From: Bdellovibrionota bacterium
GTDB lineage: Bacteria > Bdellovibrionota_C > UBA2361 > JBGSMV01
Assembly: GCA_044356455.1 (NCBI GenBank)
Contig: JBIKWF010000005.1
Span: forward strand, 21,565-85,564
DNA: 64,000 nt
Reading direction: 5' to 3'
The translations under genes were made by a program, and so were the position numbers. The notes beneath the pieces were generated by a model that was not told the DNA's origin, searched no databases, and was given only the letters and a program-made list of their open reading frames with translations. This document shows positions 19,156-53,981 of this stretch, in pieces; the stretch's first letter is position 1, and every line of letters begins with the position of its first letter.

Positions 19156-20970
19156 GTGACAGGCAGTAACCCCTCTTCGAGCGATCCGCGCCATTCTAAG
19201 AACCCTTCTGCACAAGAAGCGCGACCTGATACTACTCCCGCAGAACCTCGCCCTCTGCCAGCTCAGGTCTCTAAAGATGAGCAGCTCGCGGTTCCCGAGC
19301 AGGAACCCTTTTTGCAGTTTAAAAAAGTAAAATCTCCTCAGGGGTTTGTGTGTTCGAATCCCACGTTGGAGGAGATGGCTTCGCTAGTTGAAGTGACACT
19401 CTTTCAGAATCAGGAAAGCCCCTTTAGCGTTGAGCGCCTCGAGCGCTGCTGTGATTTCCTCAATCGAGGTGGGGAGTTCCCAGAGGATCTGATTGATGAG
19501 CTTACGCCTGAAGAGGGAACGTTAGTTCTCGACCGAGTTCAGGTGATGCGTGTCGGAGCGAGCGGAATTTCCGCTCATCACGAACTTAGAATTTCGCTAA
19601 GTGAGGAAGGGGTATGTCTTCCGATGGTGGTCATCGGGTCTCACGGTGAAGAGCCTTGGATTGCGGTCTCCTGGCGAAATCAACTTGCCAATCTTTCTTC
19701 GCACATGAGCAAGGCGCGCTGGGAGACGGCTGTTCTCGCGGCAGATATGTTTCACTCGTCGGGTGATAGCGTTTCTCCGCCAATGGAAGTCACCGTTGCG
19801 AGAGATACCGTTGCCTTAGGCGAAAGAGTTCGCGTGGCTGCGGTGCCTCGGCCGCTACTCACCGAAGAGGTACTAGAGGATCCCAGGCCCTCGCTAAGGC
19901 CTGAGTTTATAGATCTCTGCGCTTCTGATGGTTGGTGTGATGAAGAGGGCGAGCCAGTAAATATGCTCGACCGAGCTCTCGAGCTGCATAAAAAGCTTTG
20001 TCAGGTGCTTCAGCTTGACCTTGCTCCTCCCTCGTACGAATCCCTTGCTCTCACGCTCGAGGAGCTTGAGGCAGCAGGTGATAGTCCCTTGAGCGGCTTG
20101 GTGCCATCCCAAATCCATATAAAGAATTGCAATGGGCTATTACTTTTGGTGGGGCCCGCTTCAACGGGCAGGACACTTCTCGACGACCTTCAGTCTCTTC
20201 AGCACCATTCACTTAGCCTTGATACCCTTGAGCTGCCGCTTAGCGAACTGAAAGCCTATGGCATCGAAGTGTTTTCTCCCAGTGTTCAGGAGTTTGCCGC
20301 TCTCGGTAGTCGAGTCGGAATAGAAGGTCTTGGCTCGGTCTTTGAGCCGCTTTCTCAGTTTTGCCTTAGCTCAGAAGACCCCGATCTCTCCGATTTACAA
20401 GATTTGCTCATTGAGGTTGGCAGAAAAGGCAACTCCTGCACGATTGAACTCGTTCGCGAATATCGCTTTTGGCACGATTCGCGAGAGGAAGGGGAATCAG
20501 ACGCGGAAGAAGGAGGTGGCGAAGAAGAGGAGGATCTTCTTGATATTGAATTCGAAGAATCCTCAGATGACTCAGAGAGTGAAGCAGTGGTGTGCGAAGG
20601 TACAAGAGTAAGAATATCCAATGATGCGGGATTGTTCCCCGGGTCAGGGCCGCTTCTTGAATTGTATTCAATAACCCCCGAAGTGGTTGACGATGAAGAA
20701 TCCTCCTTAGAGGATGAGAGCAGTGCCGCGGAAATACTTCCTGAAGAGGACGAAGTTGCTGAAGGCGAGTACCTCGCTTGTGGACTTGTCCACCGGGGCG
20801 AAGCTGCTTCAGGTTTTACCGAGGAGCCCCTTAGCCTTTCACGGCTGAAGGAGTATCTTGCAGAGCTAGGGGTGAAGGAGCTTCCTGAGCTTGTAACCAA
20901 TATCGATTTTGAAGATAGGGGCGGAGGACGCTTTGTGATGATTGCTCCGCGAGTTAAACTACAGATCTGA
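19156..20970 (+). CDS. Orphan highly acidic hypothetical protein
   Basis: 604 aa ORF; S/P-rich N-terminus and E/D-rich tracts. Confidence 0.7.
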   Translation: MTGSNPSSSDPRHSKNPSAQEARPDTTPAEPRPLPAQVSKDEQLAVPEQEPFLQFKKVKSPQGFVCSNPTLEEMASLVEVTLFQNQESPFSVERLERCCDFLNRGGEFPEDLIDELTPEEGTLVLDRVQVMRVGASGISAHHELRISLSEEGVCLPMVVIGSHGEEPWIAVSWRNQLANLSSHMSKARWETAVLAADMFHSSGDSVSPPMEVTVARDTVALGERVRVAAVPRPLLTEEVLEDPRPSLRPEFIDLCASDGWCDEEGEPVNMLDRALELHKKLCQVLQLDLAPPSYESLALTLEELEAAGDSPLSGLVPSQIHIKNCNGLLLLVGPASTGRTLLDDLQSLQHHSLSLDTLELPLSELKAYGIEVFSPSVQEFAALGSRVGIEGLGSVFEPLSQFCLSSEDPDLSDLQDLLIEVGRKGNSCTIELVREYRFWHDSREEGESDAEEGGGEEEEDLLDIEFEESSDDSESEAVVCEGTRVRISNDAGLFPGSGPLLELYSITPEVVDDEESSLEDESSAAEILPEEDEVAEGEYLACGLVHRGEAASGFTEEPLSLSRLKEYLAELGVKELPELVTNIDFEDRGGGRFVMIAPRVKLQI

Positions 20971-21240: not shown

Positions 21241-23112
21241 GTGTCAGTTTCGCTGCTGAGGAACATACTTTCTGCAAAAGCGCAGTCCGGCCTGAGCCAG
21301 GCTACGGATGCGCTTACTCGCAGCCTCGAGCGCCTGTCGTCTGGGTCCCGAATTAACCGCGCCTCTGATGATAGTGCTGGACAGTCTGTGGTCTCCGGGC
21401 TTACCCGTGACGCGCGAGTATATGGGCGCGCAATCCTAAATTTAAACGATGGCGTGAGTGCGCTTAGCATTGCAGATGCAAGCTTGGGGCAACTCTCGGA
21501 TGTGACGACGCGGCTTAAGGAGCTTGCCACGCAGTCAGCAAATGGGAGCTTGAGCCGCACGCAGCGCAACTCTCTTGACGCTGAAGCCGATAAACTCGTT
21601 GAGGAATTTAATCGCTTGGTCGCAACCACGCAGTTTAACAGCGTTGGTTTGCTTGATGGAACGACGCAAAACATGCGTCTTCAGGGCGGGTACGGAGCAA
21701 ACGGCGGTATTTCTTTTGGCCTTGTTGATAAACTTTCGAGAACCTCAGCGTCCGGAAGTTTCCGCTCGGGGGTTACGCACACTTCCTCAAGCGGCGCGCA
21801 GAGTGACGCGGTGTATGCGGACTTTGACGGAGATGGTGTTCCTGATCGAGTAAGCGTGGGCGTAGGCGGCGGCCCTTCGGGGATGTGGTTTTTTAAAGGA
21901 AATGGGGACGGAACTTTCGGTGCGGGGACACAGAACAGTATTGGCGTTCAATTCTCTTCTGTGGCGTCTGGAGATTTTGATGGGGACGGAGATCTTGATC
22001 TCATCGCGAGTGGCACCAGTTCGATGCACCTCTATATCAACGGTGGTTCTGGGACATTTTCGGGAACCTCCTTCCCAGGCATCGTCAGCACCAATGCCCT
22101 CTCCGTGGGAGATTTCAATGGAGATGGGAGAGCTGACGTTGCGGTCCTGCGCTCCGCGTCCGCAGGGATTAATATCTACCAAGGAACGGCAGGAGGGGGA
22201 CTCTCACTTTCGCAAAATATAGCAGGTAACTATACCGCATCAAAGGCAATCGACATAGATGGCGATGGTGATAGCGATCTCGTTACGGTCGATTCTACCG
22301 GGAATGTGCGCTCAGCGCTTAACAATGGGGCGGGCACACTTGCACTAGGGAGCATCCTCTTTTCTGTCGGTTCCTCTGGTTCGGATATCGACATTTCGGA
22401 TGTTACTGATGACGGTGTGCTCGATATCATAGTCACGGAGGGGTTTGAGCGAAGTTTGTATGCCGGAGATGGAGCTCAGGGCTATACGAGTCGAGGATCA
22501 CTTTCTTCGAGCCTCTCCTTTTATTCGGATACGCAGCTGGTGGATTTTAATGGTGACGGAAATCTTGATATTCTCTCTCAAAACGACTTTGGTGCGAGTC
22601 TTTCGATTCAGTTCGGTGATGGATATGGAAACTTTGGCTCGGAAATTCTGGTGGAGACTAGTTCGTCGAACACGGAGGTGCTCGATCTCAATGGAGACGG
22701 AATTCTTGATTTGGTTTCCATCGACTCCTCGGGAAATACGGTTAGTAATTTCGGCAATGCAACGAATACTGCCTCAATTGGTCAGCTTGACCTCAACACC
22801 GCCTCCGATGCTTTGGGCGCTCTTTCAACAATCGATGGAATTCTCAACCGCATCAATCAACAGAGAGGAGCCTTCGGTGCTCAGCAAAGCCGCGTGCAAA
22901 ATGCGCTGCAGGTTCTGCATGCCATGAGAGACAACGATTTTGCAGCCGCTGCTCGCATTTCGGATGTTGATGTGGCGATGGAAAGTGCGCAGCTGGCGAA
23001 GAGCCAAATACTTCAGCAGGTCAGCAGCGCAATTCTTGCGCAAGCGAACCAGGCTCCTGCCTTGGCGCTTACTCTGCTCTCCGGTACGGCGGCAAGTTCG
23101 GGCCGCAGGTAA
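21241..23112 (+). CDS. Flagellin with a seven-repeat FG-GAP/VCBS insertion
   Basis: Flagellin N domain SLERLSSGSRINRASDDSAG...RLKELATQSANG...TQFN; C domain RGAFGAQQSRV...RISDVDVAMESAQLAKSQILQQ...LAQANQ; seven DxD/NGDGxxD-type motifs in between. Confidence 0.92.
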   Translation: MSVSLLRNILSAKAQSGLSQATDALTRSLERLSSGSRINRASDDSAGQSVVSGLTRDARVYGRAILNLNDGVSALSIADASLGQLSDVTTRLKELATQSANGSLSRTQRNSLDAEADKLVEEFNRLVATTQFNSVGLLDGTTQNMRLQGGYGANGGISFGLVDKLSRTSASGSFRSGVTHTSSSGAQSDAVYADFDGDGVPDRVSVGVGGGPSGMWFFKGNGDGTFGAGTQNSIGVQFSSVASGDFDGDGDLDLIASGTSSMHLYINGGSGTFSGTSFPGIVSTNALSVGDFNGDGRADVAVLRSASAGINIYQGTAGGGLSLSQNIAGNYTASKAIDIDGDGDSDLVTVDSTGNVRSALNNGAGTLALGSILFSVGSSGSDIDISDVTDDGVLDIIVTEGFERSLYAGDGAQGYTSRGSLSSSLSFYSDTQLVDFNGDGNLDILSQNDFGASLSIQFGDGYGNFGSEILVETSSSNTEVLDLNGDGILDLVSIDSSGNTVSNFGNATNTASIGQLDLNTASDALGALSTIDGILNRINQQRGAFGAQQSRVQNALQVLHAMRDNDFAAAARISDVDVAMESAQLAKSQILQQVSSAILAQANQAPALALTLLSGTAASSGRR

Positions 23113-24000: not shown

Positions 24001-24045
24001 GCCGAAGGAATCACCGCCGAAGGAATCACCGCCGAAGGAATCACC
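24001..24045 (+). repeat. Tandem repeat (GCCGAAGGAATCACC) x3
   Basis: Read directly; abuts a partial MITE. Confidence 0.85.
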
Positions 24046-24154
24046 TCTGTGTACCTCCGTGTCCTCTGCGGTGAAATTTTCATGAAGAAATTGACCACAG
24101 AGGACACGGAGGTACACAGAGGTGTCTTAAGAATGAACGTTTTTCAGAGGTTCC
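24041..24154. mobile_element. Partial MITE-like element (right TIR and inner hairpin retained)
   Basis: CACCTCTGTGTACCTCCGTGTCCTCTG...CAGAGGACACGGAGGTACACAGAGGTG, ending TTTTCAGAGGTTCC. Confidence 0.7.
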
Positions 24155-36292: not shown

Positions 36293-37705
36293 ATGGAGCC
36301 TCAGCAAACATCTGGATTTGGCGGAAAATCAGAAGCTTCCAAGCCTGCACCCAGTTCTGGCGTGTGCTCCCCGGGGGATGGGGTGGCGTTAAGCTGCTCG
36401 TCTCCTTCGGTCTTGCGCTTTCCTTTGTTAGGGATTGAAGCGGGCACTCGAGTGCCTAAAGAACCAGCCTCAAAAATTTCATTCGCTCATCACACTAATC
36501 TTTATCAGCCCTCTCAGATACGAGAGTTCACCTCAAACTTGACGCGCGAATGCCTGACAGAGTCATCCTTCCCGAGCGACCTTGCTTCGTGCGGCGTAGG
36601 TTTCGACCCGCTACGTCTTGCGCAGACACTCCACCGGGTCGATTTCTGGAGAGAGATACTAGAACTCTCGCTCTATAAGAGGTCACTTCGTGACCTTGTG
36701 ATAAAGGGTGAGGAAGGAATTAAGAACTTAGATGAGATAGATAACTTCTATGCCCGGGTGTCAGCAGAGGGAAGTGAGCTTTTGCTCAATCTTGCGCTCT
36801 CTGAGCTGTTCCACTTACCGTCTCGAGTCGCGGAGAAAAGGATTTCTCCGCTTGTGGCCGCGCAGTGCCGAGCGATTATGCGCGCCGCGGTGAGCGCTCT
36901 GCAGCGGGACTATCATTACAATACCGCGACTCAAAAATTTGAGGGACCTGATGGTTTGGAAGTAGATGTCGAAGCTCTTGTGCCGTTTCGCAGTCGCTAT
37001 AGTGCCGAGCGTAAGACCTTCGGAGGAGAGTCGCTTTCGCGAAATGAGCGAAAATTGTTGGCTGCTTATCGCGTGCTGGGACGCGAGATTGGAAGGCTCA
37101 AACTAGAAATTGCTCTTTTGCGAGCGGTGACGGAAGTCGAAGATCAAACGCCCACTCGTGCAGTTGATGCTGCTTTGGATAAAGTCGCGGGAGTAACGCA
37201 GCACCTAAGTGACATAGAGCCGAATCGTTTGGCGCTCAGATATTATTTACATCGGCGTGTCCGTTCGGGAATGCGCGATCTTCTTGCGGGGCTTGCCACG
37301 GTCGGCAGGACTGCAGGGACGGGAAAACTTTCAAGTGCCACTTGGGTAGCGCAGTCTGACCTTACGTGGACTCAGCGCCTTAAGCTCGGCTACTTGCATT
37401 TGCGTCACGGGCAACATGGAAGCCTTTTGACCAAGATTGCTGTGGGTCAAAGCCTGTTGATGGTCGGAGTGGGACTCACGCAATATTTGGGGCAGCATAT
37501 TCCGCAGCTACTTGAGACCGTGCGGGGGGCACCTGTTTTGGGGCAAGCCTTTCAATTTGCAGAGCAGCCCCTCACGAAAATCGGAGCAACGCTGATACTG
37601 CTTGGTGCTTTGGATCTCATTCCCAATGCCATCATTTCGTGGCAGAGCCGGAAGCTAAGTAAGTACCTAACGAACAAAGCAGAGATAGCAGAGAGCAAAA
37701 ATTGA
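36293..37705 (+). CDS. Orphan hypothetical protein with C-terminal TM helices
   Basis: 470 aa ORF with GAGG RBS; S/P-rich N-terminus. Confidence 0.7.
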   Translation: MEPQQTSGFGGKSEASKPAPSSGVCSPGDGVALSCSSPSVLRFPLLGIEAGTRVPKEPASKISFAHHTNLYQPSQIREFTSNLTRECLTESSFPSDLASCGVGFDPLRLAQTLHRVDFWREILELSLYKRSLRDLVIKGEEGIKNLDEIDNFYARVSAEGSELLLNLALSELFHLPSRVAEKRISPLVAAQCRAIMRAAVSALQRDYHYNTATQKFEGPDGLEVDVEALVPFRSRYSAERKTFGGESLSRNERKLLAAYRVLGREIGRLKLEIALLRAVTEVEDQTPTRAVDAALDKVAGVTQHLSDIEPNRLALRYYLHRRVRSGMRDLLAGLATVGRTAGTGKLSSATWVAQSDLTWTQRLKLGYLHLRHGQHGSLLTKIAVGQSLLMVGVGLTQYLGQHIPQLLETVRGAPVLGQAFQFAEQPLTKIGATLILLGALDLIPNAIISWQSRKLSKYLTNKAEIAESKN

Positions 37706-37902: not shown

Positions 37903-37930
37903 TCAAAGCATACCTAAATACCTACGATCA
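37903..37930 (+). promoter_or_regulatory. Possible sigma-28-like promoter of the second flagellin
   Basis: CAAA-N15-TACGATCA, resembling TAAA-N15-GCCGATAA with mismatches. Confidence 0.25.
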
Positions 37931-37993: not shown

Positions 37994-39847
37994 ATGGGTG
38001 TCATCTCCTTCGGGAGCAACATCGCCGCGCTTCGAGCTCTTCGCCGTCTTAACGACAGCTCGAATGATCTTGCGCGCACTTCTGAAAAATTATCGTCAGG
38101 TCAAAGAATTAACCGTGCGAGCGACGACGCGGCTTCACTCGCAATATCTTCTTCGCTTCGAAAAGATGTCAACGTGTACTCACAGGCCCTTCGAAATGGA
38201 GGCGACGCGATTTCGGCCTTGAGCATTGTTGAGGGCAGTCTCACGCAGTTAAGTTCAGTACTTATGCGCCTCAAGGAGCTTGCCACTCAGGCCTCCAATG
38301 GAACGTTCTCCCTAACGCAGCGCCTCTCCCTCGACGAGGAAGGTGAGCAGTTAACCCTAGAGTTTAATCGTATCGTGGGGTCCACTGAATTTAACGGAAT
38401 TAACCTTCTCAACGGTCTTTTTGGGCGGATGAATGTGCAGTTGGGGTATGGAACAAATGGCTCAATTGGATTCGGGGTAGGGCAGGAGCTTGATCGCAAT
38501 AAGGGCACGGGTTTTCAGGATGGGTCCCAGTTCGTGGCAGCTTCAACAGTTCCTACAGATCCCGATCTCGCGGATCTCAACGGAGATGGAAACTTAGATC
38601 TGATAGTAAGGGACAGTACCTCTATTCGCGTTAGTATGGGTAATGGAGATGGAACGTTTCGCTCTCAGACGAGCTATTCCTTCTCCGAGGTCTCAGCACT
38701 TGGAGCCGTGGGCGACTTAAATGGAGACGGAATTCTTGATCTTGTCACAGGTGGAGCAACGCTAGGGGTGGGGGTCCGCTATGGGGTAGGAGATGGGACC
38801 TTTGGCGCAGAGACTCGTATTGCGGTGGGGGGAAATGTCAGCGGACAGGTAATTCTTGGTGATTTTAATGGAGACGGCACTCTTGATGTAGCAGGTTCTA
38901 GTACAAGTTCCTCTTCGGTATTTATGGCGCAATCTAATGGGGCGGGGGGCTACTCCCTAAGCTCGTACGCAGCGGGGGCGAATATTCGCTCACTGACCGT
39001 GGGGAATTTGAATTCAGACGGGTTTGACGACCTTCTCATAAAGGACAGCTCCGGAGACTTGAGGATTGGCTTGGGGAAAAGTGGGTCGGGGCTCACCGCA
39101 GGTTCTACTATCGATGTTACCTCAACTAACTCGGGAACGATTGAAGTGGCAGACTTTAATTTTGATGGGATTCTGGATGTGGTGGCAAGTGGAGGTACTT
39201 CGCTTAATGTGCTTCTTGGAAATGGTGACGGCACCTTTCAGACTGCGACGAATTACTCTGTGGGAAGCACCCAGGGAATTTCTACTCGAGATATGAATGG
39301 TGACGGCATTCCAGATCTTACTTACGCGACGCTCGGCTCTATACGTTTTCTTCGTGGTATCGGGGATGGAAGCTTTGCGACTGAAACTAGTTTCACTGCT
39401 ACTCTTGCTGCGGGGAGATTCGCCGTAGGAGATATTAACGGAGACGGAGTGCCTGATTTGCTGGGTGCGGACGCTTCAGCCCCCGATAGTATTCAGACGG
39501 CCCTTGCTACTACCACGACAACAACTTCGATTGAGCGCTTCAATCTCACCACTCAGCAAAGTGCAAGGGATGCGCTCTCTCAGATTTCAAGTGCACTGGA
39601 TCGGCTTAGCCGAGAGCTTGGGGCTATTGGCGGCGCCCAGAGCCGTATCAACGTGGCTCTTGGCGCGATTGCCGCAAGCAGGGAAAATAGCGCGGCGGCG
39701 GAGAGCCGAATCATGAGCGCTGACGTGGCAATCGAGTCGGCAAATATGATTCGCCTCAAGATTCTCCAAGAGGCGGGCGCCGCTGTTCTTGGCCAGGCAA
39801 ATACTCAGCCCTCATTGGCACTTACGCTACTTTCCTCTACCCGCTAG
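37994..39847 (+). CDS. Flagellin with a seven-repeat FG-GAP/VCBS insertion (second paralogue)
   Basis: N domain EKLSSGQRINRASDDAA...RLKELATQASNG...TEFNG; C domain LGAIGGAQSRI...ESRIMSADVAIES...LGQAN; seven DxNGDGxxD-type motifs. Confidence 0.92.
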   Translation: MGVISFGSNIAALRALRRLNDSSNDLARTSEKLSSGQRINRASDDAASLAISSSLRKDVNVYSQALRNGGDAISALSIVEGSLTQLSSVLMRLKELATQASNGTFSLTQRLSLDEEGEQLTLEFNRIVGSTEFNGINLLNGLFGRMNVQLGYGTNGSIGFGVGQELDRNKGTGFQDGSQFVAASTVPTDPDLADLNGDGNLDLIVRDSTSIRVSMGNGDGTFRSQTSYSFSEVSALGAVGDLNGDGILDLVTGGATLGVGVRYGVGDGTFGAETRIAVGGNVSGQVILGDFNGDGTLDVAGSSTSSSSVFMAQSNGAGGYSLSSYAAGANIRSLTVGNLNSDGFDDLLIKDSSGDLRIGLGKSGSGLTAGSTIDVTSTNSGTIEVADFNFDGILDVVASGGTSLNVLLGNGDGTFQTATNYSVGSTQGISTRDMNGDGIPDLTYATLGSIRFLRGIGDGSFATETSFTATLAAGRFAVGDINGDGVPDLLGADASAPDSIQTALATTTTTTSIERFNLTTQQSARDALSQISSALDRLSRELGAIGGAQSRINVALGAIAASRENSAAAESRIMSADVAIESANMIRLKILQEAGAAVLGQANTQPSLALTLLSSTR

Positions 39848-39955
39848 GGATCTGTCCCGTAAAGATTCCTCCCTCTCCCTGTTGTGGTGGCAACGGGACA
39901 CACTCCTAGCCCGCCCCTTGGATACCTGCGCTTACAAGGCTATACTGGTGGGCCC

Positions 39956-41389
39956 ATGTCAATGCAACCTCAACCAGACCCGGCGCCACAGCGGCAACGT
40001 CGTTCCGATTTAGATGGAATTGATGAATCTGATCCGAGGTATCGCATATCGAGTGCTACCACGGACGCTTGCCTTTGCTTGTTCAATGGCTTGAGGCCGC
40101 CCCTTCAGCAGCAACTGCTCGAGCAGCGCAAGGACCGCACGCGTACACTTCAGGGCCTTTTGGATGGCCTCGGTGATGAATCGCCGCCCTTGAACGCAAC
40201 TCGCTCGTTAGTTCTTGCCATAGGTGGAGATACGCAAGTTTTCATTGAGGGGCTAGACTCCAAAGCCGAGATCGTTCCGTTTGTGGCAGTGGAGCTCCCG
40301 CTATCGCCTGATGCTAAAAGGTCTCTTGCAGAGCTTCGCCTGGGGATTTTCTTTCCCCTCTTACCCTCATATGTAATGGCACCTGATGAGCTACTCACTT
40401 CACGAGGAGCCAACCCCTCTCGCGCGAATGCCCTCGTGGCGGCGCTCCGCTGGATGGAGCTTATGGATCGAGTGAGTGTCTATTCTCCAGAGATTCTTGA
40501 CCTCACTATTTCAGCCATATTCGGCGGTGGCGACACTCGGCCATTCGCTCACATAACGGGCAAGGAAGTGATCGAAGAGTTGTTTACCCGCCGCCTTGAC
40601 TCATTTGATGAGGCTTATGCCTCCTGCGAGAGATTGGGCTTAGAGGTTTCTGGCATCGACGTTTATCGCGGCATTAAGGCTGGAGCGGTTTCACGGAGTT
40701 CTGCAACTGAACGCGTATTTATGCATTTCGAGAACGCGCGGGAGGAGCCGCGAGTACGAGCGCCCCAGTTTGCTCGGGTCACAGAGCTACTTTCGGCGAA
40801 AAAATTTATCTTCTTTCGACGGCACTCTCTTGAGTCCGCTCACGCAAAAAATCCCGAGACGCTGCCTTCGGTCGAGGGAGTGGAGCAGGGGCTTCGTGTG
40901 CTTAACGAGATTCATATTGGAGAAGGCTCTGCGCTCGGTTCGCTTATTTCGGAGCTAGAGACAGTGACACGTGTCTTAGTTAATTTGCGTTCTGCGAGTG
41001 TGGTGGGTGGTTTAGACAAGATCGTAGGAGGCGCACTATGCCGCGCATTTGAACTTTCGAATAGTTCAGTCGCAGAACTTCGAGCCCTTGAGACTGGCCT
41101 TTCGTGGCGTGAGTTGAATAGAAGAGCGGCATTCCTTAAAGTGCTTGGACATCTTGAATTGATAGAAGAGCACTTTGTCCAGGCTATCTTGGAAGTAAAG
41201 GACGTGCTTTTCTATTCCAATCTTGAGCAGGATCACGAGAGCTTTGCTGAAGCGATCTCTGAGGCTTATTTCGGCACAATTCAAACTTTGCGCTGCCTTC
41301 GAGAGCGGATTGACCAGGCGTTTCCCGGGATGCTTGGTTTTAAGGACGCTCCAGAGGTTAGGGAACCTCCGAAAGACCTCCCTTCTTAA
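39956..41389 (+). CDS. Orphan hypothetical protein
   Basis: Long ORF (open from 39884); ATG 39956 follows TTGGAT-N17-TATACT; the C-terminus reads into a MITE. Confidence 0.7.
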   Translation: MSMQPQPDPAPQRQRRSDLDGIDESDPRYRISSATTDACLCLFNGLRPPLQQQLLEQRKDRTRTLQGLLDGLGDESPPLNATRSLVLAIGGDTQVFIEGLDSKAEIVPFVAVELPLSPDAKRSLAELRLGIFFPLLPSYVMAPDELLTSRGANPSRANALVAALRWMELMDRVSVYSPEILDLTISAIFGGGDTRPFAHITGKEVIEELFTRRLDSFDEAYASCERLGLEVSGIDVYRGIKAGAVSRSSATERVFMHFENAREEPRVRAPQFARVTELLSAKKFIFFRRHSLESAHAKNPETLPSVEGVEQGLRVLNEIHIGEGSALGSLISELETVTRVLVNLRSASVVGGLDKIVGGALCRAFELSNSSVAELRALETGLSWRELNRRAAFLKVLGHLELIEEHFVQAILEVKDVLFYSNLEQDHESFAEAISEAYFGTIQTLRCLRERIDQAFPGMLGFKDAPEVREPPKDLPS

Positions 41390-41466
41390 TACACCTCTTT
41401 GTACCTCCGTGTCCTCTGTGGTGAGTCCCTTGATGAAAATTTCGCCACAGAAGTTGCAGAGGTTTC
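41362..41466. mobile_element. MITE-like element
   Basis: ttag-GGAACCTCCGAAA...CAGAGGTTTC-ctag; interior similar to the 24041 and 48477 copies. Confidence 0.7.
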
Positions 41467-41521: not shown

Positions 41522-42922
41522 TTATGTCCGCTTTTGTATGGTGGTCACTGCTTGGGTGAGCATGTGATAGAGCTTTCCTGGGGCCATGCGGCTTAGTGCG
41601 AGCGATAATCCCATCTGTTCCGCGGCTGGTGAGGGAATAAACTTAGCAAAAGTCGCGAGCACTTTTATTTCGTCCTGCTGCTCCACGAGAGCGTTACATA
41701 GGCTTTCAAGCTCGGTTCGCAGCAGTGAATCTTCCGAGAGGTACCCCATCGCGAGCTTTAAGGCGACTAGTGTTTCCTTTCCAGAGCAAAGAAGCGACGT
41801 CAGTTGTCCAATAAAGAAAGGAAAGTCACGTTCAAACGCGTGAGCGCGCGAGGCAATTCGTCTTAGTCCAGCGATGTAGGGAAGCCCTGGTAACGTGAGC
41901 GAGAGGGCCACGAGACCTGTGGGAGTAAAATGAAGAAGAAGTCCACATGCTATCCCAAATAGGCAAAGTCCGCCTTGAGTTAAGCGATACATCTCAGGCC
42001 GAAGGGGAATCCCCGCGTAGGCAAGAAAACTGCTCAGAGGCTGATGCGCATAACGAGCGAGGCGTCCCGGAGCCTGTGCCGTTGAGAGCACGGCGGCGAG
42101 GTCCTGCAATGCCTTGACCGTGCTTGCTCCTTGCTCAGCACCCCGCTCCATGCAGGCGAAGAGGTGCCGCACATCCCGAATCCCCGTACCAGCTGCTTCA
42201 GCTCTGAGGGTCGACGCGAGAGAACCGGACTCCTGCGTGCGCAGAGCGACCTTGCTGAGAAGGTCAACGAAGAAACCCCTTGTTTCGCGGAGGCGATAGA
42301 CCTCAAGTATCTTCTTTAGGCCCGACTCAACGTCATAACCCGCAACAAGCATTGCAATCATTTGCTGAGCAAATGCGGGAAGGGTAGCTTCGATTTCTCG
42401 CCGAGCTGCCCGCGCAAGATGCCAGATATAGATCCCTGACCCTATGGCAGCGCTAAGGAGTCCAAGATTTATGCCGCCCGCAAAGTGAGTAAAGCTTCTC
42501 GGTGGGTGCAATATGGCGGCAAGTCCCGCTACCAATCCGATAAGAGCAAAGACAAAAACGAGACGAATGCCGAAGTGCCTTCGCGTTTCGTATTCTGAGA
42601 GTCCCGCAAGAGAGAGAACCTGGTCAAATGGTGGTGGTTCCTGAGGTTTCACTCGAAGACGAGCCGCTTGCTTCGCTTTTTCAAATACCTCAGGGTCCTC
42701 TCGTATGGCCTTGAGGCTGGCGACCCCGGTCGGTAGATTGAGTGCGGCAATCTCCTGCTCAACTTCGTGTCTGGATTTTGGGCCGCGCTGCCTAAGGAAG
42801 ATCAGGAAAATTCCAAAAGAGTAGAGGACGCTTTGGGCAAGTAGTGCGGTAGTGTTGAATAGCACACTTGGAGACTTCCATCTCTCGCCAGGCCTGTCGA
42901 CATGCCAAAATGCGCCGTTCAT
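41522..42922 (-). CDS. Type II secretion system F-family (TadB/TadC-like) double-domain protein
   Basis: Two modules, EIEATLPAFAQQMIAMLVAGYDVESGL and AFERDFPFFIGQLTSLLCSGKETLVAL, each preceded by a TM pair; start uncertain (42865-43057). Confidence 0.65.
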   Translation of the reverse strand: MNGAFWHVDRPGERWKSPSVLFNTTALLAQSVLYSFGIFLIFLRQRGPKSRHEVEQEIAALNLPTGVASLKAIREDPEVFEKAKQAARLRVKPQEPPPFDQVLSLAGLSEYETRRHFGIRLVFVFALIGLVAGLAAILHPPRSFTHFAGGINLGLLSAAIGSGIYIWHLARAARREIEATLPAFAQQMIAMLVAGYDVESGLKKILEVYRLRETRGFFVDLLSKVALRTQESGSLASTLRAEAAGTGIRDVRHLFACMERGAEQGASTVKALQDLAAVLSTAQAPGRLARYAHQPLSSFLAYAGIPLRPEMYRLTQGGLCLFGIACGLLLHFTPTGLVALSLTLPGLPYIAGLRRIASRAHAFERDFPFFIGQLTSLLCSGKETLVALKLAMGYLSEDSLLRTELESLCNALVEQQDEIKVLATFAKFIPSPAAEQMGLSLALSRMAPGKLYHMLTQAVTTIQKRT

Positions 42923-43116
42923 TTTCGTAGCGGGGATGAGAATCGACCTCCCATAAGACGATTCGTGTAAAGTTCCCAGGGCGGGCGGGCACGTCTTTCT
43001 ACTCGGCACACCTCTTGCTCCTATGTCTTGCGGGGGTCTGTATGCACATGGCGCCATCCATCAGTAAGGGAGGCGTTATCCAATCGCGCAGTCCAAAATG
43101 GATTGTAGAGGGTTGA

Positions 43117-45291
43117 ATGTGCTCGCATTTTTCTAAGATCGGCAAGTTAGTAACCGAAAAGGGCGCTCCCTTGGCTCTTCGGGCCCTCATAGTTTTTCTT
43201 AGCCTCATTGCTTACCAATCCTCATGTTCAGTAGCCGAAGCGCAGAGCCCGGCATGCACCGATGACGCGCTTGCAGATTGGCAGGGAGAGCGCAGCGCAA
43301 AGAGCCTCGAACTTGATAACCTCTCCGTACGCCTAGGACTGAATAAGGTCGCTTGTGGGGCAAGAAAGGCTAATCTTAAGAAAAAGATCAAAAAACTAAC
43401 AAAATTAACCAAGCAGCTTGAGAGTGAGTGCAAAGGGGCAGGTAAGCTGGACTCCTGTTTGAAGGCGAAGGCAAAGTTGCTGGCTTTGAAAGCTGCGATA
43501 GAGAAAAAAGAGCGTGTTAAAGTTAGCTGCAGAAAGAGGCGTCGTGCCATTCGCAGAGAGATTTCAGGCAAGCAGGCAGCTCTTTCTGTCATTGATCAAT
43601 TCATCGAGGGCTGTCAGCCGCTTCTTTCCCCCCCGCAGGCCACTCCCGACCCCACCCCCACTCCCGTAGTCCCTCTTCCCTCGCTGCCTGTTCCCCAGTG
43701 CGCCGATGGAATCGATAATGATGAAGACGGGCTTGTTGACGCAGCGCAGGACCCAGGATGTGAAAATGCGGATGATGACAGTGAATCGAGTGAAGGGCTT
43801 CAACTGGCCGATCAGGTGACTCAGTGGGGCATCACCTTTGCGTTCGATAAGCCCTACCGGACCGGGCAATTTGTGAACGGGGACTATTGGGTTGCTCCTG
43901 ACGCACCTGGAGGAACAGTTACGATTGTCCAGACGCTACCCCTATCAGCCAATGGGCGACACGGTCTTGAGCTCAATCCGAGCCGAGAGCATGGTATTTG
44001 GCAGCCCTATGACTCGAGAGTCAATATGTATCAGGCGGCGCTTCTGCCCGTGCTTCCGCTTCAGGTGAAAGCTGGAGATGCAGTGTTAAAAGTGATCTCG
44101 GGCGAGGAGGCTTGCTCATACCCAGTAAATCTCCAGTGCCTCACCACGGCGGCTGTTCTTACTGTGCTTGACGAAGTTCCCGTGCAACGCGGTGCGACGT
44201 TCTTTCGCCCCCCCTATGTGAAGGGTGTGAAGAAGTTAGTCTCGGTTAACCAAATTGATTGGACCTTAATTCCGTTCTTCGAGGCGCCTCCCGGCGCAGG
44301 CTCTCCCAATATCGCTCAGTATGAAAACCAGTTGGAGAGAGTTCAAATCGATCACTTAGCGATTCACGAAGGAAGACATAAGCCTAAGCTCAATTCGAAA
44401 TCGTATGGTCAGGACATCTCCATCCGAAATAATGAGCTCATGCTTGCACTCTTTACGAGTAGTGATGCGAAAGTGCGATTCGACCTCACCGTACAGATGG
44501 TCCAGTACGGACTCGATCTCTTTTCTTTTCTTGAGGATGGTCAGCATTGGGAAGCGGCAGGGGGACACGGTTATGGGAGATTGTTACCGGTTGTATTTGC
44601 GGGAGCCGTGCTTCATGACGAGCTTATAAAAAGCTTCTTGCAGACGGAGGATGAATATCGATTTGGGGAAACCAATTCCACGTATGTTAGCCCGACTACA
44701 GGCAAAGCCCTCTATGGCGAAGTCATGTCAGCGTGCACAGAGTTCCAGTATTGGGATGCCATGAGGTCCCACGGAACAGCGCGAGCTTGTCGTGATCCTT
44801 ATCCTGCACAGGGCTCCATCGATGGGGGTGAAATAGCGGGTGCGTTGTATCAATCGCAAGTGGCAGGGACCGTGCAAGCGACTTTTATGATCTTCAAGTT
44901 AATGCCAAGCCTGTCAGCGTTTTTCTATGATGCGGGATTCATGGAATATGCGAAGCGCTGGCTTTTACATGGCGCTTCAACGAGTGGCGACACTTGTGCC
45001 CCCGCCATTGGTGTTTGTGACGGTGGGATTAACCCTGGGCTGGCAACAACATCGGCCAAAGCGTCCATTGACTGCTTAGGAATCCCGAATAGTGGAGTTC
45101 CGGCTAAATTTGAAGCTGATATGTCGCAGTACGGAGAGGCGTTTGGTCCTAATGGAAGCGGCGGTTGTATCGAGGATACAGATCCCTCAGATGGAATCGG
45201 CAGATTCCCACTCCAGGAGGGGGTGTATGGCGAGAATGGGCTTACGCCATTTCAGAAGGCTATACGCAATGCCTATCTTGTTGTTGAATAG
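43117..45291 (+). CDS. Large exported multidomain protein
   Basis: Signal-like segment, Lys/Cys-rich coiled region, Pro/Thr linker, QCADGIDNDEDGLVD..DPGC Ca-binding-like motif, then a ~500 aa domain beginning TQWGITF...GQFVNGDYWV. Confidence 0.75.
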   Translation: MCSHFSKIGKLVTEKGAPLALRALIVFLSLIAYQSSCSVAEAQSPACTDDALADWQGERSAKSLELDNLSVRLGLNKVACGARKANLKKKIKKLTKLTKQLESECKGAGKLDSCLKAKAKLLALKAAIEKKERVKVSCRKRRRAIRREISGKQAALSVIDQFIEGCQPLLSPPQATPDPTPTPVVPLPSLPVPQCADGIDNDEDGLVDAAQDPGCENADDDSESSEGLQLADQVTQWGITFAFDKPYRTGQFVNGDYWVAPDAPGGTVTIVQTLPLSANGRHGLELNPSREHGIWQPYDSRVNMYQAALLPVLPLQVKAGDAVLKVISGEEACSYPVNLQCLTTAAVLTVLDEVPVQRGATFFRPPYVKGVKKLVSVNQIDWTLIPFFEAPPGAGSPNIAQYENQLERVQIDHLAIHEGRHKPKLNSKSYGQDISIRNNELMLALFTSSDAKVRFDLTVQMVQYGLDLFSFLEDGQHWEAAGGHGYGRLLPVVFAGAVLHDELIKSFLQTEDEYRFGETNSTYVSPTTGKALYGEVMSACTEFQYWDAMRSHGTARACRDPYPAQGSIDGGEIAGALYQSQVAGTVQATFMIFKLMPSLSAFFYDAGFMEYAKRWLLHGASTSGDTCAPAIGVCDGGINPGLATTSAKASIDCLGIPNSGVPAKFEADMSQYGEAFGPNGSGGCIEDTDPSDGIGRFPLQEGVYGENGLTPFQKAIRNAYLVVE

Positions 45292-48476: not shown

Positions 48477-48594
48477 GGAACCTCTGAAAAACTTACCTCT
48501 GTGCACCTCTGCGTCCTCTGTGGTGAAATTTCTTCAGGGGATTCACCACAGAGGACGCAGAGGTGTATTAGAATGGGGGTCTTTCAGGGGTTCC
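48477..48594. mobile_element. MITE-like element
   Basis: ttag-GGAACCTCTGAAA...TTTCAGGGGTTCC-ctag; inner hairpin. Confidence 0.75.
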
Positions 48595-48598
48595 CTAG

Positions 48599-52757: not shown

Positions 52758-52877
52758 AGAGCCTCTGAAAGAGTCCACTCTGTGAACTCTGTGGTTGATT
52801 TAAATTGTTGAAAAACCACAGAGGACACAGAGATCACAGAGGGAAAAATTAAAATATCGAGGTTTTTCAGAGGTTCC
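52758..52877. mobile_element. MITE-like element, TSD CTAG
   Basis: ctag-AGAGCCTCTGAAA...TTTTTCAGAGGTTCC-ctag; the right-hand CTAG contains the holB stop codon. Confidence 0.78.
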
Positions 52878-53981
52878 CTAGGTAGCAATTTCATTAAGCA
52901 ACGTAGCAGAGTTCATAAAACACGAGAGTGATAGGCTCGAAGCCTTATCTTTCGAAGAAACGTTTCCCGCAAGCGCGCTAAAGATCATGGTAAGCACGGG
53001 AAGCGGCGCGAGATTCCTTTCAAAGAGATAATACTCGGCTGCGATGATATTTTCGATGAAAATTGCCCAGCGCGCAGAGAGATCTCGGCGCGAATTGCCT
53101 TCTCGCGCAGCTTCAAGCATTCGCCGGCGTGCAAGGATGCGCATGAGCTGCAGGAGCATCGGAAGTCGTTCTTTGTCTTTTGTTATCGCGGCGGCAAAGA
53201 GAGCTGCGGTAGAAAGAGAGCCTTCCGATATATCGTCGAGTTTCCTCTTTACTAACTCCCAATCTGAATGGTGATGCTCAATCTCGTCTATACTCTGCAA
53301 GGAGCCGTCGGCTAGGACTGCGAGCTCTTCGGGGGAGAGATGCCCAGGAGCATCCTGCGGAGCGGAGGGGTGCTTCGATTTGGCAGCAATAGGCCGAGCT
53401 TTGAGGATTGTTGCAACCTGATCGTCTCGCAGGGAGTCAAAAAACCAAATCTGACAGCGCGAGAGGAGCGGGGGAGGAAGCTTGGAAGGGTTGGAGGTAA
53501 TGAGAATGAAATAGATGTGTGGCTGGGGCTCTTCCAAAATTTTAAGCAGGGTGTTTGCAATCTGAATACTCAGTGCCTCAGCATTGTTAAAGACCACCAC
53601 CCTGGCATTTCCGCCAAAAGCTCCCAAGTGCAGGGAGTAAAGCAGTTCTCGAACTTGCTGGACGTTCCAGCGTTCCCTATCGCCACTTTCGACAAAATGA
53701 AAATCGGGGTGGTTGCCGGCATTAAATACGTGGCAGTGGTGGCAAGCGCCGCAGCCACCGTAAACCGAGGGAGAACTCGAGGAAGGGAGCGGTGCGGTTT
53801 CGGTTTTTGAAAAGTAGCCTTGGTTGCACTCGCAGAAAATGGAGCGCGCAAGTTCTCGGGCGACGAGCAGTTTCCCAATTCCCTGAACGCCTGCGAACAT
53901 CATGGTAGAGGGAAGTCGCCTCGAGGCGAGGAGATGGCGCAATGCTTTTCTTTGGAACTCATGACCAATCAAGGACGACAT
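52878..53981 (-). CDS. holB: DNA polymerase III delta' subunit
   Basis: GVQGIGK, Zn motif CGACHHC, HPDF, ANTLLKILEEP, LLSRCQ; adjacent to tmk. Confidence 0.9.
   Translation of the reverse strand: MSSLIGHEFQRKALRHLLASRRLPSTMMFAGVQGIGKLLVARELARSIFCECNQGYFSKTETAPLPSSSSPSVYGGCGACHHCHVFNAGNHPDFHFVESGDRERWNVQQVRELLYSLHLGAFGGNARVVVFNNAEALSIQIANTLLKILEEPQPHIYFILITSNPSKLPPPLLSRCQIWFFDSLRDDQVATILKARPIAAKSKHPSAPQDAPGHLSPEELAVLADGSLQSIDEIEHHHSDWELVKRKLDDISEGSLSTAALFAAAITKDKERLPMLLQLMRILARRRMLEAAREGNSRRDLSARWAIFIENIIAAEYYLFERNLAPLPVLTMIFSALAGNVSSKDKASSLSLSCFMNSATLLNEIAT

Follow-up and report, generated by a model that had tools for sequence, protein, structure and literature searches.

Flagellins generally combine conserved ends with a divergent middle, and their middles are swapped by recombination in the ends (PMC7018530). 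Among the flagellin outer-domain clusters of Fields et al. 2024, cluster #55 (representative A0A521GVE6) is called WD40-repeat and considered a possible interaction scaffold; it takes in all 16 supplementary rows with PF13517, out of 40 members, at lengths of 545-670 aa and with several from one organism (PMC11532411). Regarding flagellin number, a 2021 review names Magnetococcus, with 15 flagellins, as the extreme case (PMC8306008), and in Vibrio the full-length flagellin homologues FlaE and FlaF are secreted without entering the filament (PMC6692518). Calcium-blade propellers are defined by D-x-[DN]-x-D-G loops, at which calcium is bound (PMC3123361), and in the lectin AAL2 the 2-3 loops and 4-1 connectors form the sugar pocket (PMC4483166). 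Tad systems have been linked to predation in the Bdellovibrionota, in passages that do not treat a propeller-flagellin family (PMC13200544).

Here we describe a propeller-bearing flagellin gene in a 64,000-nucleotide stretch of DNA from a member of the Bdellovibrionota (the window), together with the family of flagellin ends (stalks) and propellers (heads) to which it belongs. The architecture is already catalogued; the size of the repertoire and the decoupling of heads from stalks were not found in print, and the literature searched, which covered few subscription papers, contained no study of the function or copy number of the family.

Results

Architecture and predicted structure

Both terminal flagellin domains of the 617-aa protein score above the curated Pfam cut-offs (Flagellin_N, 6e-35; Flagellin_C, 1e-14, 54.9 bits against a cut-off of 23), which places it among the bacterial flagellins, and seven FG-GAP_3 matches (3e-43) lie between them (Table 1). 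The R-x-x-E-L-A-x-Q-x-x-N-G region is at least 90% conserved among 114 relatives. A sequence-only reading of the window had listed seven calcium-loop motifs, and all of them are found as written, at residues 194, 241, 290, 338, 387, 433 and 480: six follow the strict pattern D-x-[DN]-x-D-G-x-x-[DE], and the fourth is a variant that starts with N. Two or more strict motifs occurred in none of 2000 shuffles of the protein.

An AlphaFold2 model built on a 114-sequence alignment has a mean pLDDT of 92 and places helices at residues 7-34, 46-101, 107-130 and 521-616, forming the D0/D1 hairpin. Foldseek searches with the model returned flagellar filaments on top, and the fungal lectins AAL2, PVL and PAL were also matched. 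Alignment of the propeller with those of aldos-2-ulose dehydratase and integrin alpha (VIA-align) gave a Z of about 30 and an rmsd of 2.7-3.1 A over 313-328 residues. The middle of the flagellin is thus a predicted seven-bladed calcium-loop propeller, and from the motif and the calcium binding described for such loops (PMC3123361) we infer that its loops bind calcium.

Table 1 Features of the propeller-flagellin locus (window positions).
Feature	Position	Strand	Basis
Propeller-bearing flagellin gene	37994..39847	+	ORF and 617-aa translation; Pfam; AlphaFold2 model
Candidate sigma-28 (FliA)-like promoter: TCAAA, 15-nt spacer, TACGATCA	37903..37930	+	trained matrix
Flagellin N-terminal D0/D1 helices, residues 8-141	38015..38416	+	PF00669, 120.8 bits vs cut-off 26.6
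Predicted seven-bladed calcium-blade (FG-GAP) beta-propeller on two-strand stalk, residues 171-510	38504..39523	+	PF13517 x7; model
Motif starts in the propeller	38573, 38714, 38861, 39005, 39152, 39290, 39431	+	
Flagellin C-terminal D1/D0 helix, residues 529-613	39578..39832	+	PF00700 positions 2-86 of 86
First paralogue in the window, 623 aa, same architecture	21241..23112	+	ORF; Pfam; identity comparison

The two window copies and their surroundings

The first copy in the window ends 14.9 kb upstream of the 617-aa gene and shares with it the order Flagellin_N, FG-GAP, Flagellin_C, a near-equal length and the terminal motifs RINRASDD and RLKELATQ. None of the other 38 of 40 ORFs scanned has a Pfam match to a flagellar family. 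In these points, and in the likeness of the ends against unlike propellers (49% identity in the N-terminal part, 30% in the propeller and 45% in the C-terminal part), the sequence-only reading described the locus correctly. It went too far in calling the pair strongly diverged, since the all-pair mean of the genome's seven propeller copies is 52/31/46% and the pair is therefore typical.

The ORFs that flank the 617-aa gene (36293-37705 and 39884-41389) have no Pfam family, and no functional link to it was seen; the former was not found in four relatives and the latter has one 28% match elsewhere in a same-genus genome (G001). Together with 19156-20970, they are large orphan ORFs, without Pfam family or paralogue, that adjoin both flagellin copies. 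Further along, 41522-43057 on the minus strand encodes a 511-aa protein that looks like two fused TadB/TadC-type membrane units, with weak matches to T2SSF and to the genome's own tad genes, and 43117-45291 on the plus strand a 724-aa protein without a Pfam family that has three long paralogues in the genome (29-51%). A dispersed repeat of about 95 nt lies at window positions 24042-24154, 41359-41455, 48495-48597 and 52815-52880; it occupies about 189 loci of the genome and reaches very high depth in other lake runs. Mobilisation of the flagellins by this repeat was considered and rejected, a copy lying within 500 nt of 2 of the 24 flagellin ORFs compared with 198 of 2125 long ORFs.

Flagellar genes of the host genome

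The host genome (4.7 Mb in 216 contigs, 93% complete, 1.2% contamination) carries 24 flagellin ORFs; two of these are contig-end fragments, possibly of one gene, which leaves 23-24 flagellins. Seven have a full propeller, one a partial propeller, ten measure 423-451 aa, and the remainder are four short flagellins and the fragments. The expanded family proposed from two copies is therefore real: seven propeller flagellins are present here, and a relative yields up to 32 matches. The best coverage of the window DNA was found in lake metagenomes, and none of the 24 runs listed was of RNA.

The flagellar machinery that an export role presupposes is also encoded. The flagellar genes found comprise fliF, G, I, E, L, M, N, O, P, Q, R, flhA, B, F and motA, and they are accompanied by fliA, flgB, C, D, E, F, G, H, I, A, K, L, two fliD and fliS, by fliW and csrA, and by a weak match only to fliH. 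Export gate, rod, rings, hook, junction, two caps, motor and chaperone are thus represented, and neither outcome that would have counted against the sequence-only reading, a family of two copies or a genome lacking flagellar export, was obtained. The two fliD cap genes stand in tandem, and there are two flgE hook genes (locus L007, contig C13, 14262-17484; loci L147 and L148); this might point to filaments of more than one type.

The ten flagellins of 423-451 aa form a second family, with one clade by stalk (support 99) and a Pfam-less middle of about 170 aa (contigs C26, C52, C74, C100, C113, C122, C169, C186, C202 and C205; loci L236-L246 except L238). A single calcium-loop-like motif is present in several members. 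C100 and C169 carry a recently duplicated pair in which dN is 0.15 in the middle versus 0.01-0.04 in the ends, and an atlas search with the middle of a 431-aa member returned only matches under 0.9. The partial-propeller flagellin (L238, contig C73, 11286-12641) measures 451 aa, with two to three calcium loops, and G013, another relative, has comparable partial forms.

Besides a tad cluster, the genome contains two FHIPEP (SctV-like) genes that are non-flagellar (L005, contig C184, 9609-18758; L006, contig C7, 11974-16971). One FHIPEP gene lies directly behind the tad cluster and the other near an SctJ-like gene and a sigma factor, and both are found in five relatives too. This arrangement resembles the Tad/type III arrangements of predators, and the genes are compatible with predation.

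Expression signals

A promoter matrix was trained on 39 flagellin leaders from six other genomes, 12 leaders that were array-internal, duplicated or truncated being omitted, and gave a two-box motif of approximately YAAR-N15-GYCGATHW. The 22 scorable flagellin leaders of the host genome score above 1834 background leaders (p 3e-6). The candidate site of the 617-aa gene ranks in the top 3.8% of that background, which is modest for a single site, and the site of the first window copy is at background level. These values supersede a test with the enterobacterial sigma-28 consensus, which was weak (p 0.003).

Codon bias is ribosomal-protein-like (97.5-99.7th percentile) in two of the three 286-aa flagellins and in a short-type C-terminal fragment. 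The 617-aa gene lies at the 68th percentile, and its six sisters, like the seven propeller flagellins as a whole, at the 48th-77th. The leaders of the complete 286-aa genes and of the N-terminal fragment contain 2-4 A-x-GGA sites. Taken together, the sigma-28-like site and the ordinary codon bias suggest that the propeller flagellins are minor subunits, and they are likely late flagellar genes expressed at a modest level.

Turnover among relatives

Full-length relatives of the protein come mostly from Bdellovibrionales or Bdellovibrionota records. Flagellin_N occurs in 88 of the 96 genomes of the class, with at least 37 matches (FlgL included) in two relatives. A query with the D1-propeller junction gives exactly 7 matches in the host genome and matched 36 of the 96 genomes, led by G044 with 32 matches and G013 with 19, figures that are not strict copy numbers.

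The window and the same-genus genome G001 (FlhA 84% identical) are collinear. In G001, too, a propeller flagellin stands between znuA and the ABC ATPase gene in the same orientation, but with 52% identity in the stalk and 32% in the head this copy is no closer to the 617-aa gene than any other. The region from znuA to the ABC partner genes is 12 kb longer in the window than in G001. At the collinear site of the first window copy, no flagellin match was found in G001, and the best G001 match to the 617-aa gene sits at the site of a 345-bp gap in the host genome. The 617-aa gene has no close orthologue in the sister species. Probable orthologues within the genus have 43-51% identity in the head, near the median of 58% for ordinary genes between the host genome and G001, which weighs against a specially variable head. 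The stalks nearest to that of the 617-aa protein are found in another family (55-64% identity), which either transfer or differential loss could explain. Codon use and GC3, considered as signs of a recent horizontal acquisition, are ordinary.

Heads and stalks part company in G013: between tandem copies, identity is 85-94% in the stalks but 29-43% in the heads, and the ends of these genes carry near-identical DNA tracts. A four-gene array forms one clade by stalk (97/98), and the corresponding clade of heads is rejected (p-AU 0.005). Stalk and head identities correlate weakly (rho 0.32), as opposed to 0.78 between the two stalk halves. By these trees, heads and stalks demonstrably have different histories in G013. 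This genome supplies most of the evidence for recombination, and one G009 pair has end tracts of the same sort; the seven host copies are too old to show it. The array genes abut or overlap, and the next ribosome-binding site falls within the last codons of the preceding gene, indicating co-expression and translational coupling. In most pairs from the arrays stalk dN is 0.04-0.11 versus a dS of 0.5 to saturation, a comparison that gene conversion confounds.

Location of the variation

Averaged over pairs of 81 family members, identity stands at 0.63 in the calcium loops, 0.52 in the 3-4 loops and 0.51 in the stalk, but at 0.17-0.21 in the strands; the 2-3 loops (0.14) and 4-1 connectors (0.12) are lowest. 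Six or seven calcium loops are kept in 75 of the 81. The low identity of the strands means that variation is not restricted to the outer loops; judged from the alignment, the most variable face is nevertheless the ligand-binding face of related propellers. In the model, strands 168-182 and 499-510 carry the chain into and out of the propeller at a 3-4 loop, which lies on the calcium side. Because the chain joins on that side, the variable face is predicted to lie away from the filament, and by this topology it should point outward.

The variable loops of the 617-aa propeller are short and consist to 52-57% of Gly, Ser, Thr and Ala; residues 175-505 contain neither Trp nor His, and Trp is lacking from the propeller in 44 of the 81 members. 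Such loops suit a tolerant surface no less than they suit a binding site. Of the conserved scaffold with diversified binding heads that had been proposed, the kept stalk and a head that varies on the ligand face hold up. Ligand binding itself, the adhesin role of the sequence-only reading, we infer with caution, because the PVL/AAL2 pocket is absent and the divergence of the middle is ordinary for flagellins.

The 617-aa propeller is on average 36% identical to the heads of its paralogues and equally 36% to 77 unrelated non-flagellar FG-GAP propellers, which came from other phyla. In a tree with 35 of the 77, randomly drawn, 55 flagellin propellers group together (SH-aLRT 95) with 2 of the 35 outsiders inside, under long-branch warnings. 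This pattern is compatible with one origin of the heads followed by fast change; repeated capture of heads from unrelated FG-GAP proteins was not supported by the same grouping.

Of the tree and dN/dS comparisons of ends and propeller suggested by the sequence-only reading, the trees show differing histories in G013, as above. Synonymous sites are saturated between the 617-aa gene and its paralogues and nearest relatives (dN/dS was computed for 13 of 15 pairs, the remaining two not being propeller flagellins), so that positive selection is not measurable there. Neither the genus search nor the metagenome scan returned a close DNA relative of the gene. The one close flagellin pair, from a non-propeller class, has a dN/dS of about 0.26 in the middle.

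Within the species, the gene is near-invariant. In contigs from four lake runs, which drop rare variants, a single difference was seen in a 960-nt propeller contig and none in the further propeller pieces listed. In a protein cluster, five of six members have 0-2 residue changes; in the sixth, which is a fragment of 140 aa, 8 changes fall within 37 residues at the head end and linker and 5 within the last 103. Head variation of the DGR or shufflon type was thus not found in the four lake runs or the six cluster members.

Discussion

Our preferred reading, to which we give close to an even chance, is that the 617-aa protein is a minor flagellin, exported and built into a filament made mostly of short flagellins, and that with its six paralogues it presents mixed attachment heads for surfaces or prey. 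Transcription would start late in flagellar assembly, at a promoter of the sigma-28 type, which the motif statistics make likely. The flagellar type III system, together with FliS, would then export the protein in unfolded form; the genes for this machinery are present. The propeller would fold outside the cell round calcium held by the loop motifs. According to the model topology, the calcium-loop side would be attached and the variable face turned outward. Finally, the repertoire is renewed over evolution by duplication, loss, relocation and stalk-to-stalk recombination, as comparison of the genomes shows, and not by switching within a population.

The main competitor, which we consider unlikely but worth weighing, is a variable coat: paralogues would co-assemble to mask or dilute phage or grazer receptors, or simply make the filament thicker, and would themselves bind no ligand. 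That paralogue heads are no closer to the 617-aa head than unrelated propellers are would fit such a coat, as would the Trp-poor, small-residue-rich loops, and flagellin diversity is usually ascribed to phage, immune or predator evasion (PMC7018530). The genome also has a NeuB-family nonulosonic-acid synthase gene, and the Ser/Thr loops could be glycosylated. On the other hand, evasion usually brings switching or polymorphism, whereas lake samples show almost no variation in the gene and the searches turned up no switch, and the codon bias suggests levels below those of a full coat.

A second alternative, offered by the sequence-only reading as well and in our view doubtful, is that the flagellin ends serve as an export tag that sends proteins through the flagellar channel, after which they would act free or in the matrix on polysaccharide or prey. 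The secreted non-filament FlaE and FlaF of Vibrio provide a precedent (PMC6692518), and the low-expression codon profile, the dispersed single-gene loci and the stalks of about 50% identity among paralogues agree with it. Both D1 helices are, however, full length with many invariant residues, and the low stalk dN in G013, although confounded by gene conversion, indicates more constraint than a tag needs.

A phase-variable set, in which a single paralogue is expressed at a time like fliC/fljB of Salmonella, is very improbable. In its favour, many copies are dispersed and several have their own candidate promoter. Against it, the PF00239 serine invertase is absent from the 93%-complete genome (an absence that is not absolute), the four tyrosine recombinases all lie on contigs without flagellins, and neither an inverted repeat nor a simple-sequence tract is present at the 617-aa gene; the Hin-type combination of invertase and invertible promoter, or a slippage tract, was accordingly not found in this assembly. 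The arrays of G013 are translationally coupled and look co-expressed. Together with the near-invariance of the gene within its species, these results speak against the "variable" repertoire of the sequence-only reading, if variable is taken as switching or hypervariation. That the copies are silent or decaying duplicates maintained by drift is scarcely credible: some copies in relatives are split or frameshifted, but six of the seven host copies are intact, the seventh runs off a contig end, and calcium loops and stalk are strongly conserved while synonymous sites are saturated.

Comparison with known systems

The closest catalogued match is cluster #55, with which the 617-aa protein shares Flagellin_N, FG-GAP_3 and Flagellin_C, a length of about 600-670 aa and an outer domain of about 340-400 aa. 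The passages on that cluster contain no structure, function, copy-number survey or recombination analysis (PMC11532411).

With multi-flagellin bacteria (Magnetococcus; Salmonella; Campylobacter/Helicobacter) the genome shares major and minor flagellins, a variable middle and gene conversion between neighbours; it differs in its 23-24 flagellins, with at least 37 Flagellin_N matches (FlgL included) in two relatives, in three architectural classes and in that no switch was found. Per genome, 23 to at least 36 flagellins were counted, more than the 15 that the review gives as the extreme. Vibrio, with FlaE and FlaF, likewise has extra flagellin-like genes beside the structural ones. To our knowledge, these two carry no such propeller insert.

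The seven-bladed calcium-loop fold is shared with the GlcNAc lectins PVL, AAL2 and PAL (2bwr, 4tqj, 5mb4), and integrin-alpha calcium-blade propellers have the same fold and D-x-[DN]-x-D-G loops (PMC3123361). Compared with PVL and AAL2, blades are shorter here (median 49 versus about 56 residues), as is the connecting segment, and the Asn-Trp-His pocket that lies in their long 4-1 segment (PMC4483166) is absent from the 617-aa propeller, the alignment having gaps there. A PVL-type lectin identity was therefore rejected, on the lack of Trp and His and the shorter blades.

Flagellinolysin also has a whole foreign domain in the flagellin middle, which is displayed on filaments (PMC5595980); in the 617-aa protein no catalytic motif was recognised, and the propellers form a diversified family of many copies. 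Should the heads prove to bind prey or particles, these uncultured freshwater bacteria, which are probably predatory, would have a target-recognition mode of a new kind, and the family would be a natural case of a folded domain of 340 residues shown on flagella in mixed form.

More broadly, and with the caution due to a reading that we think improbable, the family might constitute a phylum-wide modular display, in which up to about 30 propeller heads per genome are recombined onto interchangeable stalks and co-expressed as the multi-specific capture device of a swimming predator. The functional analogue would be the MAT fibres of Bdellovibrio, although fold and export route are unrelated and it is for MAT that prey binding has been demonstrated (PMC10769870). 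In both, many paralogues combine a shared scaffold with diverse tips, in MAT for varied prey (PMC10769870), and if the modular display is true, it would be the flagellar counterpart of those fibres.
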